DNA of 13,123 nt from Methanocaldococcus sp. 16A (GTDB taxonomy: Archaea; AGJL01; Methanococci; Methanococcales; Methanocaldococcaceae), in assembly GCA_049860595.1 (NCBI GenBank), contig CP187553.1. One strand, given 5' to 3'. The translations under genes were made by a program, and so were the position numbers. This document shows positions 813 to 10,524 of this stretch, piece by piece. Under the pieces are notes generated by a model. That model had not been told where the DNA came from. It made no database searches and was given only the letters and a program-made list of their open reading frames with translations. The number at the start of each line of letters is the position of its first letter. Position 1 is the first letter of the stretch.

Positions 813-3800
813 ATGAGTAATTATATAGCCACTACTATAAATGATTTACTCAACTATCCAGAGGATGTATTGAGGGCAGTTATAAAATTATTGAATGTTA
901 GATATAATCCTAACACTCTCAAAGAATATGAGATTTTTAAATCTGAACATATTGATTTGGACTTTATGAATATTTGGCTATTTTCAATAAAATACCTATC
1001 CGACGATGAGAGGGCTATTTTAGAAAAACATGGTTTATGGGATATATCCTCAGGTATGCCTTCCGATGAATTCTATAAATTGGAATATTTAATTATGAAC
1101 TCATTAGGTTGGAATGAGTGGAGACCTATAGACCCTGCAGTTGCAACCAAAAAATTAAAAGAAAAAAGTTGCGGTTGCAACTTTGGTAATGGAGGCCAAC
1201 TAAATGGTTGCATGGAAAGTTGCAATGCAACCTCAAGTAACTATGTGAAAGAAGGTGCAACTTCAGATAATTTTGATGAAGATAATGCAACCTTAAGCAA
1301 CTTTTATAATATTGAGAAGTTGCACAGCAACTTTTTAAAAGTAATTGAGTATGATGAGTTTTGGGAGAAACTCGCAGAAAGAATTGAAGCACTTAAAAAA
1401 TCAACACCATATAAAAAGAACACAATAGGAAAATACATAACTCAATTGAAATTCTTAAAAGAGCCACAATCTAAATCCCAATATATCGATGTAGTGTGTA
1501 GAGAATATCAAATATCACACACAACCGTAGAGACACACATAAAGATATTAAAACATCCAGACATTGGATGGGTAGAGGTTTATAAAGGAGAGTATGACAA
1601 GCCATGCCTAAAATTAACTTACAAATTTTACGAAGACATAAGAGACCTTATAGACCAATATTTACCTAAAAAGGAAATATCAGATAGTGAAGATAAAGAT
1701 AAAACCATAGAGGAGTTAAGAAAACAACTAAAGAAACTTATAGAGAAACACATAACACCAGAGGGATTTGAATTTGACATTAACGAAGTTGATGAGTTGG
1801 AAGGCATAGAGAGAGTTGCAGGAGCATACTTTAGAGATAAACTATTAAATGAACCATACACAGCCATAGAATGGATTTATAAAGTTTATTATGAAAAATA
1901 CTTTACATATAAGCCGATAAACATAAACATAGTAGGTTTAGAAACACTTGCAGGAAGTAGGATAATAACGAAGGTAGAGGATTGGGGAGCATTTAAGGAT
2001 AAATTAGTAGTGTTAAGAGGAGATATAGCAGGGATTATAAAGCATAAAGTAAGGAGGGACATTTTACTAACTTACAAATGTGAGGATTACGATAAAAATG
2101 GAGAAAAGAGGGGCTGTGGCTATGAATTGAAGAGATTATATAGACCGTTAGAGGGGACAGCAGACCATAAGGTAAAGTGTCCAAATTGTGGAAGGGAGAT
2201 AAAAGCCGTTGAACCAATATTAAAGGATGTAGAAGGGGATGAGGTAAAATTAGAGAAAGATTTAACAGTTATATTATTGCAGTTAAGAGGGAGTGAAGAG
2301 CTGTATAAGGTATATCTTCCATACACACCAGAGATAAACAACCTAAGGGATGTAGAGATAGTAGGGATTTTAAAAACGAACTATAAAGGGGAGTATTACA
2401 TTGAAGGGCTGAGCATAAATCCACAAAAGACAATAAACTTTAATTATGATGCATTTGTTAGAAAGGTAAAAAAGGAAGGATATGATAATGCCTTAGATTA
2501 CATAAAAGATAAGGTATTTTATGAGATTAAGAGAATATATGACAAAAATGGAGAAAATCCAACAATAGACACATTAATAGAGATAGAGATATTAGCATCT
2601 TCACATATTTGGTGGGATAGCAATAGGAAGGGATACTTAAAGCCAGAAACAATTGATGCCTTATTTATTGGAAGTTACGGGCAAGGGAAGAGTTTAACCA
2701 TAGAACCATTAGCAAAATTACACAACACAACAGAGGATACGATAAGAATAGATATGCCTAATATTGAGAACTTAATAGGGCTGATAACATCAAGAGACAA
2801 CATAAAGTATTTTAAGAAGGGATTAATTCCGATGAACCACAACAGACCGATAATATTTGAGGAGTTTATTGATTTTATCTTAAGATTGGGGAATGACATA
2901 GACCTACTAAAGGCAGGAAAGACTGCAGGAATATGGAAGAGAGAAAGAGAAGGATATAACATACCAATGATAGGAGTAAGTCCATGGATAGGGATTGGAA
3001 ACATAAAAGATATTGAGTTAATGGAGTTGTGGGAAATATACCACTTAAAAGGAGTTAATGAGTTTAGAGAGGCATTAATTAATTATTATACTAAAAAATT
3101 ATTAGAACAATACGAATACAATAGAGAAGAAGCAAGGGAGAGAGCTAAAAAGAGAGTAGATAACATATTAGGAATACATCCAGAATTTGGAGGGTTGGAT
3201 TGGCTATTAACGAATATATTGGAATTTACATTGAGGAATATGAGAGGGATGACAGATAGAATACCATTAATTTACCTATTAAAGCCATACACTAATGAGG
3301 ATTGGAAAGAGATAAAACTACATACTTATTCAGTAAAAAAATCGAGAAAAGACAACAATTTTATAAAATATAAGGAGTTAGAGGCTTACGAATGCTCATT
3401 ATTCATAAACTACATTAAAAACAAGGATATAGAATTCAATAAAGAGGCATTAGTAACACTTTGGGACATAGAGGAGAAGTTAAGGGAATTATTGAGAGAT
3501 AACGACTTATTTAAAGGATATTCCGATAGATTACTTAATCAAATAGAGTATATGGCAAAAGCTTATGCAAAACTAAGATTTAAGGAAGAGGTAGAGTTAG
3601 AGGATGTAAGGGATGCTTTAAAGACATGGTTTAAGAGTATATTAGGAGTATTGTTGAGGATTAAAGCTCCAGAGAAGGTTAAAGAACTATTTAAATTAGT
3701 TGAGGATGAGAAAAAAGAGAACTTAGATGAAGAGCAAGAATTAGAGGAGATAGATAAACTTATTGAAGAGAATAAAAAGATAATGGAATTGAAAGGGAAG

Positions 3801-3962
3801 ATATTAGATTATATGCTACAAAATCCAGAAAAGGTTTATACAACGATAGAAATTTCGGAAGTATTTGAACTATCGGAAGATACGGCGGATAAGATATTGA
3901 AAGAATTATGGAAAGTTGGGGATGTTATGAAAATTGGGGACGGACAATGGAAGCCCGTATAA
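813..3962 (+). CDS. mcm: Divergent MCM-family replicative helicase with N-terminal extension (putative initiator-helicase), 1049 aa
   Basis: C4 Zn finger (C-x11-C...CPNC, 2079-2189) in an OB-like region. Walker A GSYGQGKS (2670-2693), Walker B IIFEEF (2850-2867), Arg-finger-like TDRI (3252-3263). Sensor-2 helix [32 protein letters not shown] and a C-terminal wHTH ([30 protein letters not shown]). Strong RBS GAGGTGAT. Confidence 0.85.
1140..1333. repeat. Cluster of GTTGC/GCAAC (GTTGCAAC-derived) repeats inside the helicase gene; candidate iteron/origin
   Basis: 13 GTTGC/GCAAC pentamers in ~195 bp. TGCAAC occurs at 1226, 1256 and 1286 (30-bp period). Inverted pairs at 1165-1184 and 1317-1333. 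Confidence 0.7.
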
Positions 3963-3974
3963 TGAGGGGGTAGT

Positions 3975-5255
3975 ATGGATAGTAGGGTAGCATACTATAA
4001 ACTAACATCCAGATACTTATATTATTTTTGCTTAGATAGGATGCTAAGTTGCCATAGGTTGGATTTAGATAGAGATAGGAAAATCAATTGGAGACATCCG
4101 AAGTATTGGAACTATAACAATATTCCGAAAGGTAATAAGCCATACCTTAGACATATAGATTTATGGGACAAGAGAGGATATTGGGATAGATGGGTATTGG
4201 AGAACCTTAGGAGTATTTACTGCTCTCCATACTACTTTAAGACACCAAGATATGAGTTGGAGTATCCAGAGGTAGATTATACCTATTGGGATTGGGTATT
4301 GGATATTGACATTAAGGGAGATATTGAGAAGTCGAAGGAAATATGCAGGGCAGTATATGACATCCTCAAAGATTATGGAGTTAAAGATATTCCTATAAAG
4401 TTTAGCGGAGGTAAAGGGTTTCATATTTGGATTAATGCAAAGCACTTAACGAATGAGATATTAGAGAAGGGCTTTATAGAGGGCAGTAAAATTTTAACAC
4501 AATTCTTAGAGTTTAAGTTAAGGAATTACTTAGATTTTTTAGATAAAGACAAAACTACGGGGATAGATTACACTATTTACAAAGAGAACATTTGCATAAC
4601 TGCACCGTTTAGCCTATACTACAAAGATGTAGAGGGCAAGACACCAATAAGCATACCATTCCCAATAAACAAAATAGAGAAGTTTAAGCCAATAACACTA
4701 CAAAGGATTAGGAAGGAACTTTTAAAGAAATTACTAAAATATTATGAAAACTTTGGAGAGATAAGAGGAGATTTAACGGATTTTATAGAGGATGCATTAA
4801 ATTATTATAAAGCAACTAAAAAAGACAACTCCAATACTCTAATAACAATTGATATAGAGCAACGAAAACCTATGAAAAAACCTAAGAAGGAAGATAATAG
4901 AGGGAACGAATACATTAAGGCAACAATAGGGGATAAGGAAGTAGTCCTAAATAAGAGCAAGTTAGAGGACTACCTTAGGGAGTTGATAAATTCAGATTGG
5001 ACTGATGGAAAAATGAGGGCATGTTATTATTTAACTTCACTGTGTAAGTTACTGGGTTATGATAGAGATAAGGCAAAAAAGGTATTGGATGCATGGGCTT
5101 CCAAGTATGGCAGTAAATACATGAAACACATAGAGTATGAGTTAAAATATCTCTATGATAGGAATGGGAAGGTATGTAGCATAAAATGGATAAAAAACAA
5201 CATTCCAGAGGCTAAAAATCAACTCCTCATTTATGAAAGGTATTATAAAGAATGA
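3975..5255 (+). CDS. Archaeo-eukaryotic primase (AEP) / primase-polymerase with C-terminal helical PriX/PriL-CTD/PriCT-like domain, 426 aa
   Basis: Motif I VLDID (DID at 4302-4310), motif II FSGGKGFH (SGGKGFH at 4404-4424), motif III GIDYTIY followed by ITAPFS. A Lys-rich linker precedes the helical domain DGKMRACYYLTSLCKLLGYDRDKAKKVLDAW. It starts 12 bp after the helicase stop with RBS GAGGGGG. Confidence 0.88.
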   Translation: MDSRVAYYKLTSRYLYYFCLDRMLSCHRLDLDRDRKINWRHPKYWNYNNIPKGNKPYLRHIDLWDKRGYWDRWVLENLRSIYCSPYYFKTPRYELEYPEVDYTYWDWVLDIDIKGDIEKSKEICRAVYDILKDYGVKDIPIKFSGGKGFHIWINAKHLTNEILEKGFIEGSKILTQFLEFKLRNYLDFLDKDKTTGIDYTIYKENICITAPFSLYYKDVEGKTPISIPFPINKIEKFKPITLQRIRKELLKKLLKYYENFGEIRGDLTDFIEDALNYYKATKKDNSNTLITIDIEQRKPMKKPKKEDNRGNEYIKATIGDKEVVLNKSKLEDYLRELINSDWTDGKMRACYYLTSLCKLLGYDRDKAKKVLDAWASKYGSKYMKHIEYELKYLYDRNGKVCSIKWIKNNIPEAKNQLLIYERYYKE

Positions 5256-5275: not shown

Positions 5276-5296
5276 TGAAAATAAGAGGTTGTGATT

Positions 5297-5413
5297 ATGG
5301 AATTAGATACATTTACCATAGTGTATATTGCGGTAGTAATTACACTTATGTTATTTACAACAGCATTTGGAATATGGTTTTGGAAGCATAAGAAAAAGTT
5401 ACTCCATTCATAG
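5297..5413 (+). CDS. 38-aa single-pass membrane peptide MELDTFTIVYIAVVITLMLFTTAFGIWFWKHKKKLLHS (not in ORF track)
   Basis: Hand translation from ATG 5297 to TAG 5411-5413. RBS-like GAGGTTGTGAT at 5285-5295. Acidic N-terminus, ~24-aa hydrophobic stretch, WFW aromatic belt and KHKKK basic tail. Confidence 0.7.
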   Translation: MELDTFTIVYIAVVITLMLFTTAFGIWFWKHKKKLLHS

Positions 5414-5647
5414 AGTTTTGTAAATGTGGTATAATGCACCACCAAATATTAATGTAGTGTATGCCATATATCCAATGTCTAATAGCACTAATCCTAAACC
5501 ATTTATAGGATTACCTTCGGAGAAAGCTACTTTAACAACAATAGCAACTAATAAGGTCAATCCTGCTCCAATAAATAATTTATACAAATCAAAAATTGTA
5601 TTGTAAAGTAACTTCCTTTTTTCAAATTCTTTCTCATTGTTACTCAT
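5408..5647 (-). CDS. 79-aa membrane protein with two predicted TM helices, unknown function
   Basis: Charged N-terminus, then two hydrophobic segments (LFIGAGLTLLVAIVVKVAF; GLGLVLLDIGYMAYTTLIFGGALY). RBS-like GGTG upstream and BRE/TATA-like AGAAATTAATATATA on the minus strand at 5714-5728. Confidence 0.75.
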   Translation of the reverse strand: MSNNEKEFEKRKLLYNTIFDLYKLFIGAGLTLLVAIVVKVAFSEGNPINGLGLVLLDIGYMAYTTLIFGGALYHIYKTL

Positions 5648-5727
5648 GTATAGACACCACGATTAATCCTTAATAATACATTTGGGGCTTTATTTTTCTA
5701 TTTTTCAAGAGTGTATATATTAATTTC

Positions 5728-5791
5728 TTACAAAATTACAAAATTGTAAAAATGTGTAATTACAAAACTTATAACAATTACAAAATTGTAA
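5728..5791. repeat. AT-rich TTACAAAA repeats, including two exact copies of AATTACAAAATTGTAA
   Basis: TTACAAAA at 5728, 5736, 5760 and 5778. The 16-mer at 5734-5749 and 5776-5791 contains the palindrome TTACAA-AA-TTGTAA. Confidence 0.7.
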
Positions 5792-5879
5792 GTTACCCCT
5801 ATATTTATTTTTTCGACAAATTATGGCATGAGCAGAGTTAAGATTTAAAATTATCTTTTAAAATGAGAATAACAAAATA

Positions 5880-5923
5880 ACAAAGTGCCGATTGTCAGCT
5901 CGCGCTGTTAATCGGCACTTTGT
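5880..5923. other. Strong intergenic hairpin (14-bp perfect arms plus inner CAGC/GCTG stem, TCGC loop)
   Basis: ACAAAGTGCCGATT(5880-5893) / AATCGGCACTTTGT(5910-5923). Confidence 0.7.
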
Positions 5924-5953
5924 AAAGTAATCAAACAACCAAAAGATTACCTT

Positions 5954-5995
5954 AGGTTAAAAATTTTCGGACACCGACATTTTGGATAAAATGTT
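5954..5995. promoter_or_regulatory. Second copy of the AGGTTAAAAATTTTCGG box and the ACATTTT-N4-AAAATGT palindrome
   Basis: AGGTTAAAAATTTTCGG at 5954-5970 and CCGACATTTTGGATAAAATGTT at 5974-5995. Same motifs as 548-585 in swapped order. Confidence 0.55.
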
Positions 5996-6183
5996 AAGGG
6001 GGTGTTGAATTTTTTTGAAGTTTTGGAGAGGGTACTGCTCTATGGAGGTGTGTATTCACAGATTAAATAAATATATTCAAATATACAAACATTAGATTTT
6101 GAATATAAGCAAAACTGGGGAAGGCACTTTATTATAATATAATTAAGGGTAACGGTAGATTACTATAAAAATTAATGGGTGTG

Positions 6184-6235
6184 AAAATTGCCGAATTCGT
6201 GGAAATTCGGCAATTTTAGGCGTTATCTTTAAATA
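6184..6235 (+). promoter_or_regulatory. 14-6-14 perfect palindrome plus TATA box (TTTAAATA) upstream of the putative capsid gene
   Basis: AAAATTGCCGAATT-CGTGGA-AATTCGGCAATTTT (6184-6217), TTTAAATA at 6228-6235, and RBS-like AGGTGGGG before ATG 6291. Confidence 0.6.
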
Positions 6236-6290
6236 TGAGAAGAGATAACGCTATTTAGTGTAAATCAATTGGTTTGTAAGGTGGGGAAAG

Positions 6291-6752
6291 ATGTCAATAG
6301 CAACAGTTGTATCAAGAGATGCATCTATGAAAGGTTTGGAAAAATTAGTTAAAGCGGTTCAAGGAGATGATACTACATTTATTGAATTGATTACCGATAC
6401 AAGACAGTTTATAGGGGGTTATTCATTCGGGCTAATGAGCTTAATGATAATATCAAATGCAAGATGGTTAATTAATATATTACCAGCCAGATTACCCGCC
6501 ACTGTAGAAATTGCAGTTTCAGCAATTGTTATTTTAGTTGCTTTAATTATAGGAATTTTAATAATGACACAAATAAAAGGAACTGTGTTAGATGTGGCTA
6601 CTGCTGCAAATGATACCGATGCTGTTGATTTAGTAAATACCATATTCCAAACAGGAAAATCAGGTTTAATCATATTGGCGTTATCTACTTTGGTACTGGG
6701 TGCGGCGACGATTATCGCCTTCTTAAGAGGGGTTGGACATGCCACAAAATGA
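6291..6752 (+). CDS. Putative spindle-shaped-virus major capsid protein precursor (SSV1 VP1/His1/PAV1-type architecture), 153 aa
   Basis: The C-terminal ~80 aa form a hydrophobic helix (aa ~71-92, ...ALIIGILIMTQI), a polar loop with an N-glycosylation sequon N107-D-T, a second hydrophobic helix (aa ~125-145) and a short basic tail. A ~70-aa N-terminal extension resembles the cleaved VP1 propeptide. The gene itself is well supported; the product call is pattern-based. Confidence 0.65.
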   Translation: MSIATVVSRDASMKGLEKLVKAVQGDDTTFIELITDTRQFIGGYSFGLMSLMIISNARWLINILPARLPATVEIAVSAIVILVALIIGILIMTQIKGTVLDVATAANDTDAVDLVNTIFQTGKSGLIILALSTLVLGAATIIAFLRGVGHATK

Positions 6753-7047
6753 TGAAAAGAATGAGGTTAAAATTTTTAAGTGTTTAATTAAAGATGGACA
6801 GCTTTATTACTCCATTGAGTTTCTTAGCTATGTGTTAGGCGTTTCTGGGCAAACTTTAAGGAACAAGATTAAAAATCAAAAAGGTTTTTTACATAAATAT
6901 GTGTTAAAAATCAAAAAAGGTAGCGGGAAATTTGAGTATTATGTTCCCGATGAGATAATCAATATATTACAAAATAAATGTCTTGTTATCGATGGTGAGG
7001 TTTTATATTATGATAAAAGCACTTCAGAATTAATAAAATTACTTTAA
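6739..7047 (+). CDS. HTH DNA-binding protein (copy 2)
   Basis: Identical to 177-485. Confidence 0.75.
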   Translation: MPQNDEKNEVKIFKCLIKDGQLYYSIEFLSYVLGVSGQTLRNKIKNQKGFLHKYVLKIKKGSGKFEYYVPDEIINILQNKCLVIDGEVLYYDKSTSELIKLL

Positions 7048-7374: not shown

Positions 7375-10300
7375 ATGAGTAATTATATAGCCACTACTAT
7401 AAATGATTTACTCAACTATCCAGAGGATGTATTGAGGGCAGTTATAAAATTATTGAATGTTAGATATAATCCTAACACTCTCAAAGAATATGAGATTTTT
7501 AAATCTGAACATATTGATTTGGACTTTATGAATATTTGGCTATTTTCAATAAAATACCTATCCGACGATGAGAGGGCTATTTTAGAAAAACATGGTTTAT
7601 GGGATATATCCTCAGGTATGCCTTCCGATGAATTCTATAAATTGGAATATTTAATTATGAACTCATTAGGTTGGAATGAGTGGAGACCTATAGACCCTGC
7701 AGTTGCAACCAAAAAATTAAAAGAAAAAAGTTGCGGTTGCAACTTTGGTAATGGAGGCCAACTAAATGGTTGCATGGAAAGTTGCAATGCAACCTCAAGT
7801 AACTATGTGAAAGAAGGTGCAACTTCAGATAATTTTGATGAAGATAATGCAACCTTAAGCAACTTTTATAATATTGAGAAGTTGCACAGCAACTTTTTAA
7901 AAGTAATTGAGTATGATGAGTTTTGGGAGAAACTCGCAGAAAGAATTGAAGCACTTAAAAAATCAACACCATATAAAAAGAACACAATAGGAAAATACAT
8001 AACTCAATTGAAATTCTTAAAAGAGCCACAATCTAAATCCCAATATATCGATGTAGTGTGTAGAGAATATCAAATATCACACACAACCGTAGAGACACAC
8101 ATAAAGATATTAAAACATCCAGACATTGGATGGGTAGAGGTTTATAAAGGAGAGTATGACAAGCCATGCCTAAAATTAACTTACAAATTTTACGAAGACA
8201 TAAGAGACCTTATAGACCAATATTTACCTAAAAAGGAAATATCAGATAGTGAAGATAAAGATAAAACCATAGAGGAGTTAAGAAAACAACTAAAGAAACT
8301 TATAGAGAAACACATAACACCAGAGGGATTTGAATTTGACATTAACGAAGTTGATGAGTTGGAAGGCATAGAGAGAGTTGCAGGAGCATACTTTAGAGAT
8401 AAACTATTAAATGAACCATACACAGCCATAGAATGGATTTATAAAGTTTATTATGAAAAATACTTTACATATAAGCCGATAAACATAAACATAGTAGGTT
8501 TAGAAACACTTGCAGGAAGTAGGATAATAACGAAGGTAGAGGATTGGGGAGCATTTAAGGATAAATTAGTAGTGTTAAGAGGAGATATAGCAGGGATTAT
8601 AAAGCATAAAGTAAGGAGGGACATTTTACTAACTTACAAATGTGAGGATTACGATAAAAATGGAGAAAAGAGGGGCTGTGGCTATGAATTGAAGAGATTA
8701 TATAGACCGTTAGAGGGGACAGCAGACCATAAGGTAAAGTGTCCAAATTGTGGAAGGGAGATAAAAGCCGTTGAACCAATATTAAAGGATGTAGAAGGGG
8801 ATGAGGTAAAATTAGAGAAAGATTTAACAGTTATATTATTGCAGTTAAGAGGGAGTGAAGAGCTGTATAAGGTATATCTTCCATACACACCAGAGATAAA
8901 CAACCTAAGGGATGTAGAGATAGTAGGGATTTTAAAAACGAACTATAAAGGGGAGTATTACATTGAAGGGCTGAGCATAAATCCACAAAAGACAATAAAC
9001 TTTAATTATGATGCATTTGTTAGAAAGGTAAAAAAGGAAGGATATGATAATGCCTTAGATTACATAAAAGATAAGGTATTTTATGAGATTAAGAGAATAT
9101 ATGACAAAAATGGAGAAAATCCAACAATAGACACATTAATAGAGATAGAGATATTAGCATCTTCACATATTTGGTGGGATAGCAATAGGAAGGGATACTT
9201 AAAGCCAGAAACAATTGATGCCTTATTTATTGGAAGTTACGGGCAAGGGAAGAGTTTAACCATAGAACCATTAGCAAAATTACACAACACAACAGAGGAT
9301 ACGATAAGAATAGATATGCCTAATATTGAGAACTTAATAGGGCTGATAACATCAAGAGACAACATAAAGTATTTTAAGAAGGGATTAATTCCGATGAACC
9401 ACAACAGACCGATAATATTTGAGGAGTTTATTGATTTTATCTTAAGATTGGGGAATGACATAGACCTACTAAAGGCAGGAAAGACTGCAGGAATATGGAA
9501 GAGAGAAAGAGAAGGATATAACATACCAATGATAGGAGTAAGTCCATGGATAGGGATTGGAAACATAAAAGATATTGAGTTAATGGAGTTGTGGGAAATA
9601 TACCACTTAAAAGGAGTTAATGAGTTTAGAGAGGCATTAATTAATTATTATACTAAAAAATTATTAGAACAATACGAATACAATAGAGAAGAAGCAAGGG
9701 AGAGAGCTAAAAAGAGAGTAGATAACATATTAGGAATACATCCAGAATTTGGAGGGTTGGATTGGCTATTAACGAATATATTGGAATTTACATTGAGGAA
9801 TATGAGAGGGATGACAGATAGAATACCATTAATTTACCTATTAAAGCCATACACTAATGAGGATTGGAAAGAGATAAAACTACATACTTATTCAGTAAAA
9901 AAATCGAGAAAAGACAACAATTTTATAAAATATAAGGAGTTAGAGGCTTACGAATGCTCATTATTCATAAACTACATTAAAAACAAGGATATAGAATTCA
10001 ATAAAGAGGCATTAGTAACACTTTGGGACATAGAGGAGAAGTTAAGGGAATTATTGAGAGATAACGACTTATTTAAAGGATATTCCGATAGATTACTTAA
10101 TCAAATAGAGTATATGGCAAAAGCTTATGCAAAACTAAGATTTAAGGAAGAGGTAGAGTTAGAGGATGTAAGGGATGCTTTAAAGACATGGTTTAAGAGT
10201 ATATTAGGAGTATTGTTGAGGATTAAAGCTCCAGAGAAGGTTAAAGAACTATTTAAATTAGTTGAGGATGAGAAAAAAGAGAACTTAGATGAAGAGCAAG

Positions 10301-10524
10301 AATTAGAGGAGATAGATAAACTTATTGAAGAGAATAAAAAGATAATGGAATTGAAAGGGAAGATATTAGATTATATGCTACAAAATCCAGAAAAGGTTTA
10401 TACAACGATAGAAATTTCGGAAGTATTTGAACTATCGGAAGATACGGCGGATAAGATATTGAAAGAATTATGGAAAGTTGGGGATGTTATGAAAATTGGG
10501 GACGGACAATGGAAGCCCGTATAA
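7375..10524 (+). CDS. mcm: Divergent MCM-family helicase (copy 2)
   Basis: Identical translation to 813-3962. Confidence 0.85.

Follow-up and report, generated by a model that had tools for sequence, protein, structure and literature searches.

The stretch of DNA analyzed here (the window, 13,123 bases) is the whole of contig C3 of a 1.62 Mb genome in three contigs, and belongs to Methanocaldococcus as judged by matches at the DNA and protein levels. The contig is a 6,562-bp unit written twice, the two head-to-tail copies being identical except for one base in a run of G near position 6000 (5 G versus 4 G). Such a near-exact double unit points to a small circular plasmid of Methanocaldococcus assembled as a dimer, and the dimeric form with its G-run difference is probably an assembly concatemer combined with a homopolymer miscall. 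All main genes of the unit lie on the plus strand. The gene rep, at 813–3962 (second copy at 7375–10524), encodes a 1,049-aa MCM-like replication protein (P0001), assigned from the open reading frame (ORF) list, homologs, fold, and invariant residues. It is followed at 3975–5255 by a plus-strand gene for a 426-aa primase-like protein of AEP type (archaeo-eukaryotic primase; P0002), which matches Pfam DNA_primase_S with E 1.4e-5 and 26.0 bits against a cut-off of 26.8. Across 1615–5246, these replication genes share 76% DNA identity with the small extrachromosomal element of M. jannaschii. Inside rep, at about 1140–1333 (and, at the unit offset of 6,562, again at about 7702–7895), lies an array of 13 short pentamers, recognized from k-mer counts, homologs, and codon resampling, that encodes a disordered linker of the replication protein (residues ~110–173). 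This array and its possible role in plasmid replication are the subject of the present analysis.

The pentamer array and its counterparts in related loci

The motif GTTGC starts at 1140, 1168, 1174, 1207, 1219, and 1319, and its complement GCAAC at 1143, 1177, 1227, 1257, 1287, 1297, and 1327. The unit of 6,562 bp has 21 copies altogether, and 13 of them fall within 194 nt, where 0.62 would be expected (Poisson 1.8e-13), while the remaining eight are scattered (1815, 4048, 4812, 4859, 4920, 5544, 6300, and 6537). Among all strand-symmetric 5-mers, counted in 194-nt windows over the whole unit, the array ranks first; ACAAA/TTTGT at 5730, the runner-up among unrelated clusters, reaches P = 3.4e-6. 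A chance origin of the pentamer cluster is excluded. The array also contains larger repeated elements: GTTGCAAC is found solely at 1140 and 1174, TGCAAC occurs at 1142, 1176, 1226, 1256, and 1286 (including a 30-bp series at 1226/1256/1286), and the 19-mers at 1224–1242 and 1284–1302 agree at 17 of 19 positions. Inverted copies form a central palindrome, GTTGC-AAT-GCAAC with flanks (1216–1234), and two further pairs, AAAGTTGC / GCAACTTT with 8-nt arms and a 4-nt spacer (1165–1184) and AAGTTGC-ACA-GCAACTT with 7-nt arms and a 3-nt spacer (1317–1333). The motif spans all three reading frames and is translated variously as VA/AT, SC, GC, CN, SN, and KLH. The first-pass annotation of this DNA, made from the sequence alone, had described these pentamers, palindromes, 30-bp series, 19-mers, and inverted pairs, together with the reading of the motif in different frames and its mere scatter elsewhere in the unit. 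All of this was reproduced, and k-mer enrichment computed along the unit, as that annotation had suggested, singles out the array as the most extreme 5-mer cluster. An antisense ORF of 88 aa (1126–1392, minus strand) coincides with the array and probably arises incidentally from the strand symmetry of the motif.

Ten homologs of P0001 were found (42–92% identity). DNA was compared for six other loci, namely the M. jannaschii element (L003/L006) and the metagenome contigs L008, L009, L011, L012, and L013, so that five motif types are represented with DNA in hand, whereas the motif types of P0006, P0007, P0009, P0012, and P0016 were deduced from peptides only. Of 40 Methanococcales species genomes, only two encode the protein, the window's own and G005, and the G005 rep product stood in for the M. 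jannaschii protein in the alignment. A scan of genome-contig and viral-contig collections with the family alignment gave no further relatives, and a profile search of 1.84 billion representatives returned just five proteins at E ≤ 0.001; the family is therefore narrow. There was no sign of canonical MCMs among these five proteins.

The linker is the one hypervariable stretch of the protein alignment, with each homolog carrying its own odd repeated peptide, and each locus has one short motif arrayed in both orientations at exactly this position. In an unbiased scan, the linker array was the top 5-mer cluster in all six homologous loci (P 1e-11 to 7e-18). Compared with the 13 of 21 copies of GTTGC/GCAAC in the window, TGGTGAA/TTCACCA has 10 of its 13 copies within the array in L003, 9 of 10 in L008, and 14 of 14 in L009; GTGGC/GCCAC has 14 of 18 in L011, GTAGC/GCTAC 14 of 20 in L012, and GTTAC/GTAAC 11 of 13 in L013. 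Extended motifs are rare outside the arrays (0–3 copies per locus). Written as cores, the motifs are GCAAC in the window, TTCAC(C) in L003, L008, and L009, GCCAC in L011, GCTAC in L012, and GTAAC in L013, and in four of the five types the variation is mostly confined to one or two bases of G-N-N-A-C.

The geometry of the sites is shared to a greater degree than their sequence. Counted from a conserved GWxxW anchor, minus sites lie in most loci at offsets of about 60/61, 70, 100, 112, and 172, and plus sites at 120, 130, 150, 160, 180, 190, 210, and 220. Across most loci the offsets are nearly equal and the orientations are equal, and the core sequence alone differs; the window itself misses some of these offsets and has some of its own. 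The central palindrome (offsets 112 minus and 120 plus) is in place in all seven loci with the plasmid-specific core, the pair at 1165–1184 occupies offsets 61, 67, and 70, and the pair at 1317–1333 occupies offsets 212/220, an arrangement shared with L013. Sites are spaced by 10, 30, or 60 bp, and as a spacing of 10 bp puts neighbors in different reading frames, this is a period of the DNA and not of the peptide. The otherwise identical loci L008 and L009 differ by one 60-bp unit, equal to five sites and 20 aa, and the M. jannaschii element (NC_001733.1) has a TTCACCA/TGGTGAA array at 3520–3710 of L003 with two near-identical 60-bp units. The protein carrying the latter array, WP_010890101.1, is annotated as a "winged helix-turn-helix transcriptional regulator" and is the M. 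jannaschii homolog of the MCM-like replication protein. The first-pass annotation had raised the question of whether homologous genes hold different repeats at the same linker position, and six loci do so with the same geometry.

Several observations show that selection acts on the DNA of the array and not on the linker peptide, as had been supposed from the window alone. When the linker codons of the window were resampled with synonymous codons drawn from the gene's own usage, the mean was 3.6 and the maximum 9 pentamers, and the observed 13 were reached in 0 of 5,000 resamplings. The same procedure across six loci, each with the usage of its own gene, gave means of 1.1–3.6 against 11–14 copies observed (0 of 5,000 in each). 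In the conserved VAT/NAT peptides, the silent third base of the alanine codon tracks the plasmid motif (GCA in the window, GCC in L011, and GCT in L012), and in L011 GCC makes up 5 of 7 alanine codons in the linker versus 4 of 35 elsewhere (Fisher P = 0.0026). Between the window and its closest relative, P0005 (92% identical), 1 of 25 codons touching a pentamer has changed, compared with 13 of 44 other linker codons (P = 0.012). Finally, in a relative of ~94% identity, known from contigs of four runs in two studies, all 15 listed changes within 1150–1266 avoid the pentamers; these are among 27 of 37 differences listed for record X1-1 and are indicative only.

The remainder of the plasmids appears to have little in common. 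Matches to P0002 at 71–73% identity are located downstream of the rep match in L003, L008, L009, and L011, whereas tblastn with the remaining ORFs of the window unit drew a blank in the other loci. By blastp (E ≤ 1e-3), the six loci compared have no ORF upstream of rep in common; in L011, the 878 nt upstream of rep contain no ORF that reaches 60 aa; and intergenic DNA gives only short matches between loci. As judged by these comparisons, rep and the primase gene are the sole genes found to be common to the loci. Two proteins, known as protein only, extend the picture in part. The sole distant relative, P0016 (995 aa, E 1.8e-22), has IPxGY-like and ENKL-like repeats in the equivalent linker, and from these peptides the embedded-array design may reach beyond the close family. 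P0018 (188 aa) is a stand-alone match to the N-terminal domain of the family only (profile positions 15–114).

Domains of the replication protein and an exchangeable cassette

A full-length AlphaFold2 (AF2) model based on 10 sequences is mediocre overall (mean predicted local distance difference test score, pLDDT, of 55) and informative by domain. It predicts a helical N-domain (10–119), a linker (120–179, pLDDT about 22), a helix-turn-helix (HTH) with a beta-hairpin (~180–283), a domain at 299–540, a poorly modeled P-loop tier, and lastly a confident C-terminal winged helix. The N-terminal helical domain (residues 1–119, 813–1169) has a pLDDT of 73–90. The linker, located between two folded domains, has a pLDDT of 21–28 and is predicted to be disordered, and a separate model of residues 1–301 (seven sequences, pLDDT 67) again has a disordered linker at 121–166.

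The domain that follows the linker (residues 177–283, 1341–1661, pLDDT 74–90) is winged-helix-like and is proposed as the reader of the array from its fold match and its co-variation with the array. Its secondary structure by DSSP consists of helices at 205–215, 221–232, and 236–247 and strands at 254–258 and 264–268 (pLDDT 80–90). In VIA comparisons, residues 179–293 score a middling Z of 7–8.9 against winged-helix chains, and most of the 50 entries listed are winged-helix DNA-binding regulators (MarR, MecI, SarX, RosR, LmrR, and Fur), some of them solved with DNA. A sub-threshold Pfam match to HTH_36 (E 0.022) lies in the same segment of the window's protein. With moderate confidence, residues ~179–283 are thus modeled as winged-helix-like.

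Residues 299–540 (1707–2432) resemble the N-terminal tier of MCM helicases, with a helical subdomain, a Zn-binding motif, and an OB fold. VIA aligned 180–186 residues with 4me3, 1ltl_E, 8q67_F, and 2vl6_A (Z 11.8–12.1, root-mean-square deviation 4.3–5.5), 49 of the 50 entries listed are MCM, and the top Foldseek matches are all MCM (E 5e-6 to 2e-4). Cys423/435/456/459 (the Zn motif), E683/E684 (Walker B), and D815/R816 are invariant in the homologs, as are G620, Y622, G623, G625, K626, and S627 of the Walker A P-loop (residues 620–627, 2670–2693). The ATPase tier is modeled at a pLDDT below 50, and the family profile finds only Mcm7/Mcm4 among PDB sequences, weakly (E 0.024–0.1) and in the region after the P-loop. 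The only Pfam match of P0001 was MCM_lid (E 0.018), whose 16 bits fall short of the 27.4 cut-off, and PF00493 was not matched. The MCM label of the first-pass annotation therefore holds at the level of the modeled fold (residues 299–540, Z about 12) but not for membership of the curated family by sequence, and P0001 is best described as MCM-like. The C-terminal winged helix (residues 990–1049, 3780–3959) has a pLDDT of 83–89.

The array and the winged helix downstream of it differ together between close relatives. In L011 and L012, the DNA is 100% identical up to approximately residue 103, 60–82% identical inside, and 100% identical again from approximately residue 263; the encoded proteins share 98% identity in the N-domain, 58% in the linker, 74% in the winged helix, and 97–98% in the middle and core regions. 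The corresponding values are 96, 39, 24, and 91–99% for P0006/P0009 and 90, 23, 46, and 96–98% for L008/P0007, whereas P0007/P0009, which have the same peptide type, retain 76, 71, 89, and 88–90%. The break and rejoin points are common to all three pairs with different arrays (roughly residues 108–123 and 251–276). Exchange at the same boundaries in three pairs indicates that array and winged helix behave as an exchangeable cassette of roughly 450 bp (residues ~106–262, 1128–1598 on the plus strand), as deduced from the DNA of L011/L012 and the three protein pairs. Between the window and the M. jannaschii element, the linker/winged-helix cassette is just 15–26% identical. The other domains do not follow the array. 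The N-terminal domain is 96–100% identical in pairs with different arrays, and the C-terminal winged helix retains 87–92% identity in such pairs without tracking array type. The earlier proposal that the N-terminal and winged HTH domains flanking the array bind its sites can accordingly be kept for the downstream winged helix, which co-varies with the array, but not for the N-terminal domain, which does not.

Proposed role of the array

The constraint on DNA, the conserved geometry, the plasmid-specific core, and the co-variation together form the signature of a cognate pair of protein and site. On balance, we favor the interpretation that the array is a set of binding sites on duplex DNA for the protein's own winged helix, and that it probably serves as an origin and specificity determinant. 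Recognition of the pentamers by the downstream winged helix is the firmer component and is quite probable, while a function as the replication origin is a step less secure and only somewhat favored. The newly made replication protein would bind the pentamers, as inverted pairs and as direct copies at 10-, 30-, and 60-bp spacing, and this binding could start the helicase assembling on the plasmid that encodes it, while the AEP primase encoded next to rep would supply primers. If the helicase is nucleated there, the array would be the replication origin or its recognition element. The array would also set replicon specificity and incompatibility, and probably copy number, as iterons do, and the array and its reader would be swapped between plasmids by recombination as a roughly 450-bp cassette. 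A self-targeting MCM-like helicase is plausible given that the host order lacks Orc1/Cdc6, as stated in PMC3914693. As a tentative generalization that we regard as slightly less likely than not, a family of MCM-like helicases of archaeal plasmids may be self-loading initiators that keep their own origin in a disordered linker beside its reader, the cassette being swapped to yield new specificities.

A number of observations weigh against this interpretation. The array is GC-richer than most of the plasmid and among its most stable duplex segments, with windows in 1101–1280 at the 2nd–14th percentile of instability and the flank at 1261–1360 only average. The least stable 60-mers, at 574–633 and 5714–5773, are at least 500 bp away, and an AT-rich unwinding element of the iteron type therefore does not adjoin the array. 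Other repeat clusters occur in the intergenic DNA of the window plasmid and its relatives. A TTACAA(AA)/TTGTAA cluster in both orientations (5728–5790) coincides with the plasmid's least stable DNA and could function as a promoter/operator or as a competing element for origin function, and TTCCATGGTTC-type (CCATGG-type) repeats are present in L008/L009 at about 2800–2870. The assignment of the reader is based on a seven-sequence AF2 model with middling scores (best Foldseek E 0.024), and Pfam searches with the winged-helix segments of five homologs and the N-domain gave no match above threshold. Nor are the loci independent, as L008 is almost the same as L009, L003 resembles both closely, and a common backbone underlies L011 and L012. 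Finally, P0012, known as protein only, has Cys-Tyr repeats that imply an L012-like GCTAC array, while its winged helix is closer to that of L011 (87%) than to that of L012 (75%). This mix of types means that a simple code of one helix for one base is not established, and part of the co-variation could be mere linkage because the array adjoins the winged helix.

The lack of an adjoining AT-rich element, the unstable DNA upstream of rep (574–633) and at 5714–5773, and the intergenic repeats and hairpins (5728–5790 and 5880–5923 here, and others in L008/L009) would all suit a different division of labor, in which the replication protein binds the array for copy control, autoregulation, or incompatibility and initiation takes place in AT-rich intergenic DNA. 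The array would then be a roadblock or operator inside rep, whose transcription could be stopped by protein bound 330–520 nt into the gene, or it would serve in titration or handcuffing. We consider this unlikely but the most serious competitor. Unlike the array, which every locus keeps, the intergenic regions lack conservation between loci, and the cognate motif is absent from intergenic DNA, so that the protein's reader would have no site there. Moreover, the relative of ~94% identity (four runs, two studies) has other sequence in place of 5707–5902; runs X1 and X2 contain a joint from 5706 to 5903, and X1 has an unlike loose end of 134 nt. In iteron systems, control and origin functions usually reside on the same sites. 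Partition sites are likewise arrays of short direct and inverted repeats, and the array could be a centromere-like partition site or the operator for another small plasmid protein, such as the ORF at 171–485 with its weak HTH matches. This is improbable, since the domain with which the array co-varies belongs to Rep; an upstream or accessory protein as the binder of the array was rejected, as none is common to the six loci compared.

Even less probable is a role of the inverted copies in RNA or single-stranded DNA structure (in translation, mRNA stability, or priming), with compensatory changes. The RNA of 1130–1345 does fold at −58.6 kcal/mol, compared with −42.1 ± 3.9 for shuffled sequences (z = −4.24, matched by 0 of 200 shuffles), and the central palindrome is retained through changes in its two arms. 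However, good folding is expected of any set of inverted motifs, the arms of 5–8 nt would be weak at the growth temperature of the host, and Rfam gave no match in the array (the one match, with E 0.84, is outside it at 1690–1729). Furthermore, plus and minus copies are unbalanced (9 versus 5 in L003, L009, and L011), and pairing leaves unexplained the extra plus copies at conserved 10-bp and 30-bp spacings; duplex recognition is favored over pairing because these direct copies are unbalanced and phased. The least probable explanation, to the point of being negligible, is that the linker is a repeat at the peptide level (Cys/Asn/Ser-rich and possibly metal-binding) or slippage-prone filler that has no DNA function. 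Some homolog linkers contain Cys and His, and the number of units varies by 60 bp between L008 and L009. Against this, the peptides of the homologs are unrelated (Cys/Asn/Ser-rich, LHQQN-type, VTGGY-type, and others) while the positions and orientations of the DNA sites are kept, the motif occurs in three frames and on both strands, and the linker is predicted to be disordered. The peptide-level explanation was rejected in view of these unrelated peptides and the constrained codon choice, which none of the 5,000 synonymous resamplings reproduced.

If binding by the protein's own winged helix and origin function are both correct, an MCM-type helicase would find its DNA through its own sequence-specific domain without Orc1/Cdc6, and archaeal replicons would have their first described case of an intragenic origin. 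The family offers five or more pairs of reader and site on one scaffold, which would be useful for studies of DNA recognition by winged helices. The module of rep with its internal array and the primase gene is compact (about 4.4 kb), and replicating shuttle vectors for hyperthermophilic Methanocaldococcus could be built on it. As for annotation, the M. jannaschii homolog is currently labeled as just a transcriptional regulator, and in evolutionary terms, cis sites within a disordered coding linker would give rise to hypervariable, odd-looking peptides as a by-product. Full-text literature searches, supplementary files aside, found no origin, iterons, or array described for these plasmids or for the M. 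jannaschii element, and the portions consulted of PMC2926602, PMC5862659, and PMC3914693 make no mention of the array.

The plasmid unit has several other features. The GC skew climbs almost monotonically along the unit, which is uninformative for the origin because all large genes are on one strand. Upstream of rep are a 153-aa hydrophobic ORF (6291–6752, plus) and a 102–104-aa ORF (171–485, second copy at 6733–7047, plus) with weak matches to Mga HTH (E 0.015) and HTH_11 (E 0.09). The intergenic DNA contains a hairpin at 5880–5923 (20-nt arms, 90% complementary, 4-nt loop) and two further strong hairpins recognized as inverted repeats in the sequence (6185–6215 and 6222–6256), and the three have no Rfam match. 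A block of ~443 bp (5278–5720) is 92–93% identical to plasmid pI of M. lauensis, with 93% around 5278–5522, and holds two small membrane-peptide ORFs, of 40 aa (5291–5413, plus) and 79 aa (5408–5647, minus). As judged from the translations, the pI replication protein P0004 (1,076 aa) has no evident similarity to P0001, and the block appears to be an accessory module, possibly toxin-like or membrane-related, that moves between unrelated replicons. Two segments of ~50–60 nt, 5660–5720 and 5924–5974, recur at 80–85% identity in other Methanocaldococcus contigs, and the latter also matches contig C2 of this genome. Their counterparts are adjacent and inverted (G006:C2 138–196/211–260 and G010:C9 12358–12408/12423–12469), and the pair may mark the termini of a small mobile insertion or constitute a cis element that the contigs share. 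In L009 (2690–2910) and also L008, TTCCATGGTTC-type repeats and ATGGCAAC/GTTGCCAT inverted repeats lie about 1.1 kb upstream of rep and adjoin a 193-aa ORF whose N-terminus is ribbon-helix-helix-like by eye; these repeats may be an operator or a partition site.

Comparison with known replication systems

The closest parallel in arrangement is found in lambdoid phages, in whose replicons the repeat sequence and the DNA-binding domain of the initiator differ together; the DNA-binding domain of lambda O is N-terminal. According to PMC7466680, ori-lambda sits in the middle of gene O and lambdoid O proteins gain residues with extra iterons. The analogy drawn in the first-pass annotation is therefore correct, and it covers both the placement of initiator-binding repeats in the middle of the initiator's own gene, as proposed here, and the effect of repeat number on protein length, as between L008 and L009 (20 aa). 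The present case differs in its archaeal plasmid host and in that the protein is the MCM-like helicase itself, whereas O is a helicase recruiter. Its putative reader lies downstream of the array, unlike the N-terminal domain of O, its sites are 5–7-nt cores in both orientations at 10/30/60-bp spacing instead of four iterons of 18–19 bp, and an AT-rich tract does not adjoin the array.

With respect to mechanism, the SV40/polyomavirus large T antigen (which recognizes GAGGC) and papillomavirus E1 are hexameric helicases that have their own sequence-specific origin-binding domain. This domain reads inverted pentamer- or hexamer-type sites and allows head-to-head helicase assembly without a separate loader. 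The replication protein considered here is similar in being a helicase with its own putative DNA-binding domain and inverted pentamers. T antigen and E1, however, are superfamily 3 (SF3) helicases of eukaryotic viruses with another origin-binding fold and with sites in non-coding control regions, whereas P0001 combines an MCM-type N-terminal tier with a putative winged-helix-like reader, and its sites are located within coding DNA. Iteron plasmids (the pPS10, F, R6K, and RK2 class) encode their own winged-helix initiator that binds clustered repeats, and their iterons define specificity, incompatibility, and copy control. Their initiators are not helicases, and the iterons are about 17–22 bp long, direct, and intergenic, with a DNA unwinding element and DnaA boxes adjoining.

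Among archaeal replicons, pRN1 is also a small plasmid with a multidomain replication protein (ORF904) that combines helicase and DNA-binding functions, and to our knowledge an array of plasmid-specific pentamers is not among its reported features. The helicase of pRN1 differs in belonging to SF3 and being fused to a prim-pol. According to PMC4234260, the minimal replicon of pRN1 consists of the rep operon and a cis region. The latter is 166 bp downstream of orf904 and does not lie within it. The extrachromosomal element of M. jannaschii is the nearest named relative, as WP_010890101.1 is truly homologous to P0001 (61% identity along the full length), the array is arranged in its linker in the same way, and a gene matching the window primase at 73% identity comes next. 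It differs in carrying TTCAC(C)A/TGGTGAA instead of GCAAC/GTTGC and in the size of the replicon (16.5 kb). Intragenic origins bound by their initiator are well known in phages and bacterial plasmids; what is new here is the archaeal host, the MCM-like initiator helicase, the arrangement of pentamers on a conserved grid, and the swappable cassette of sites plus reader.

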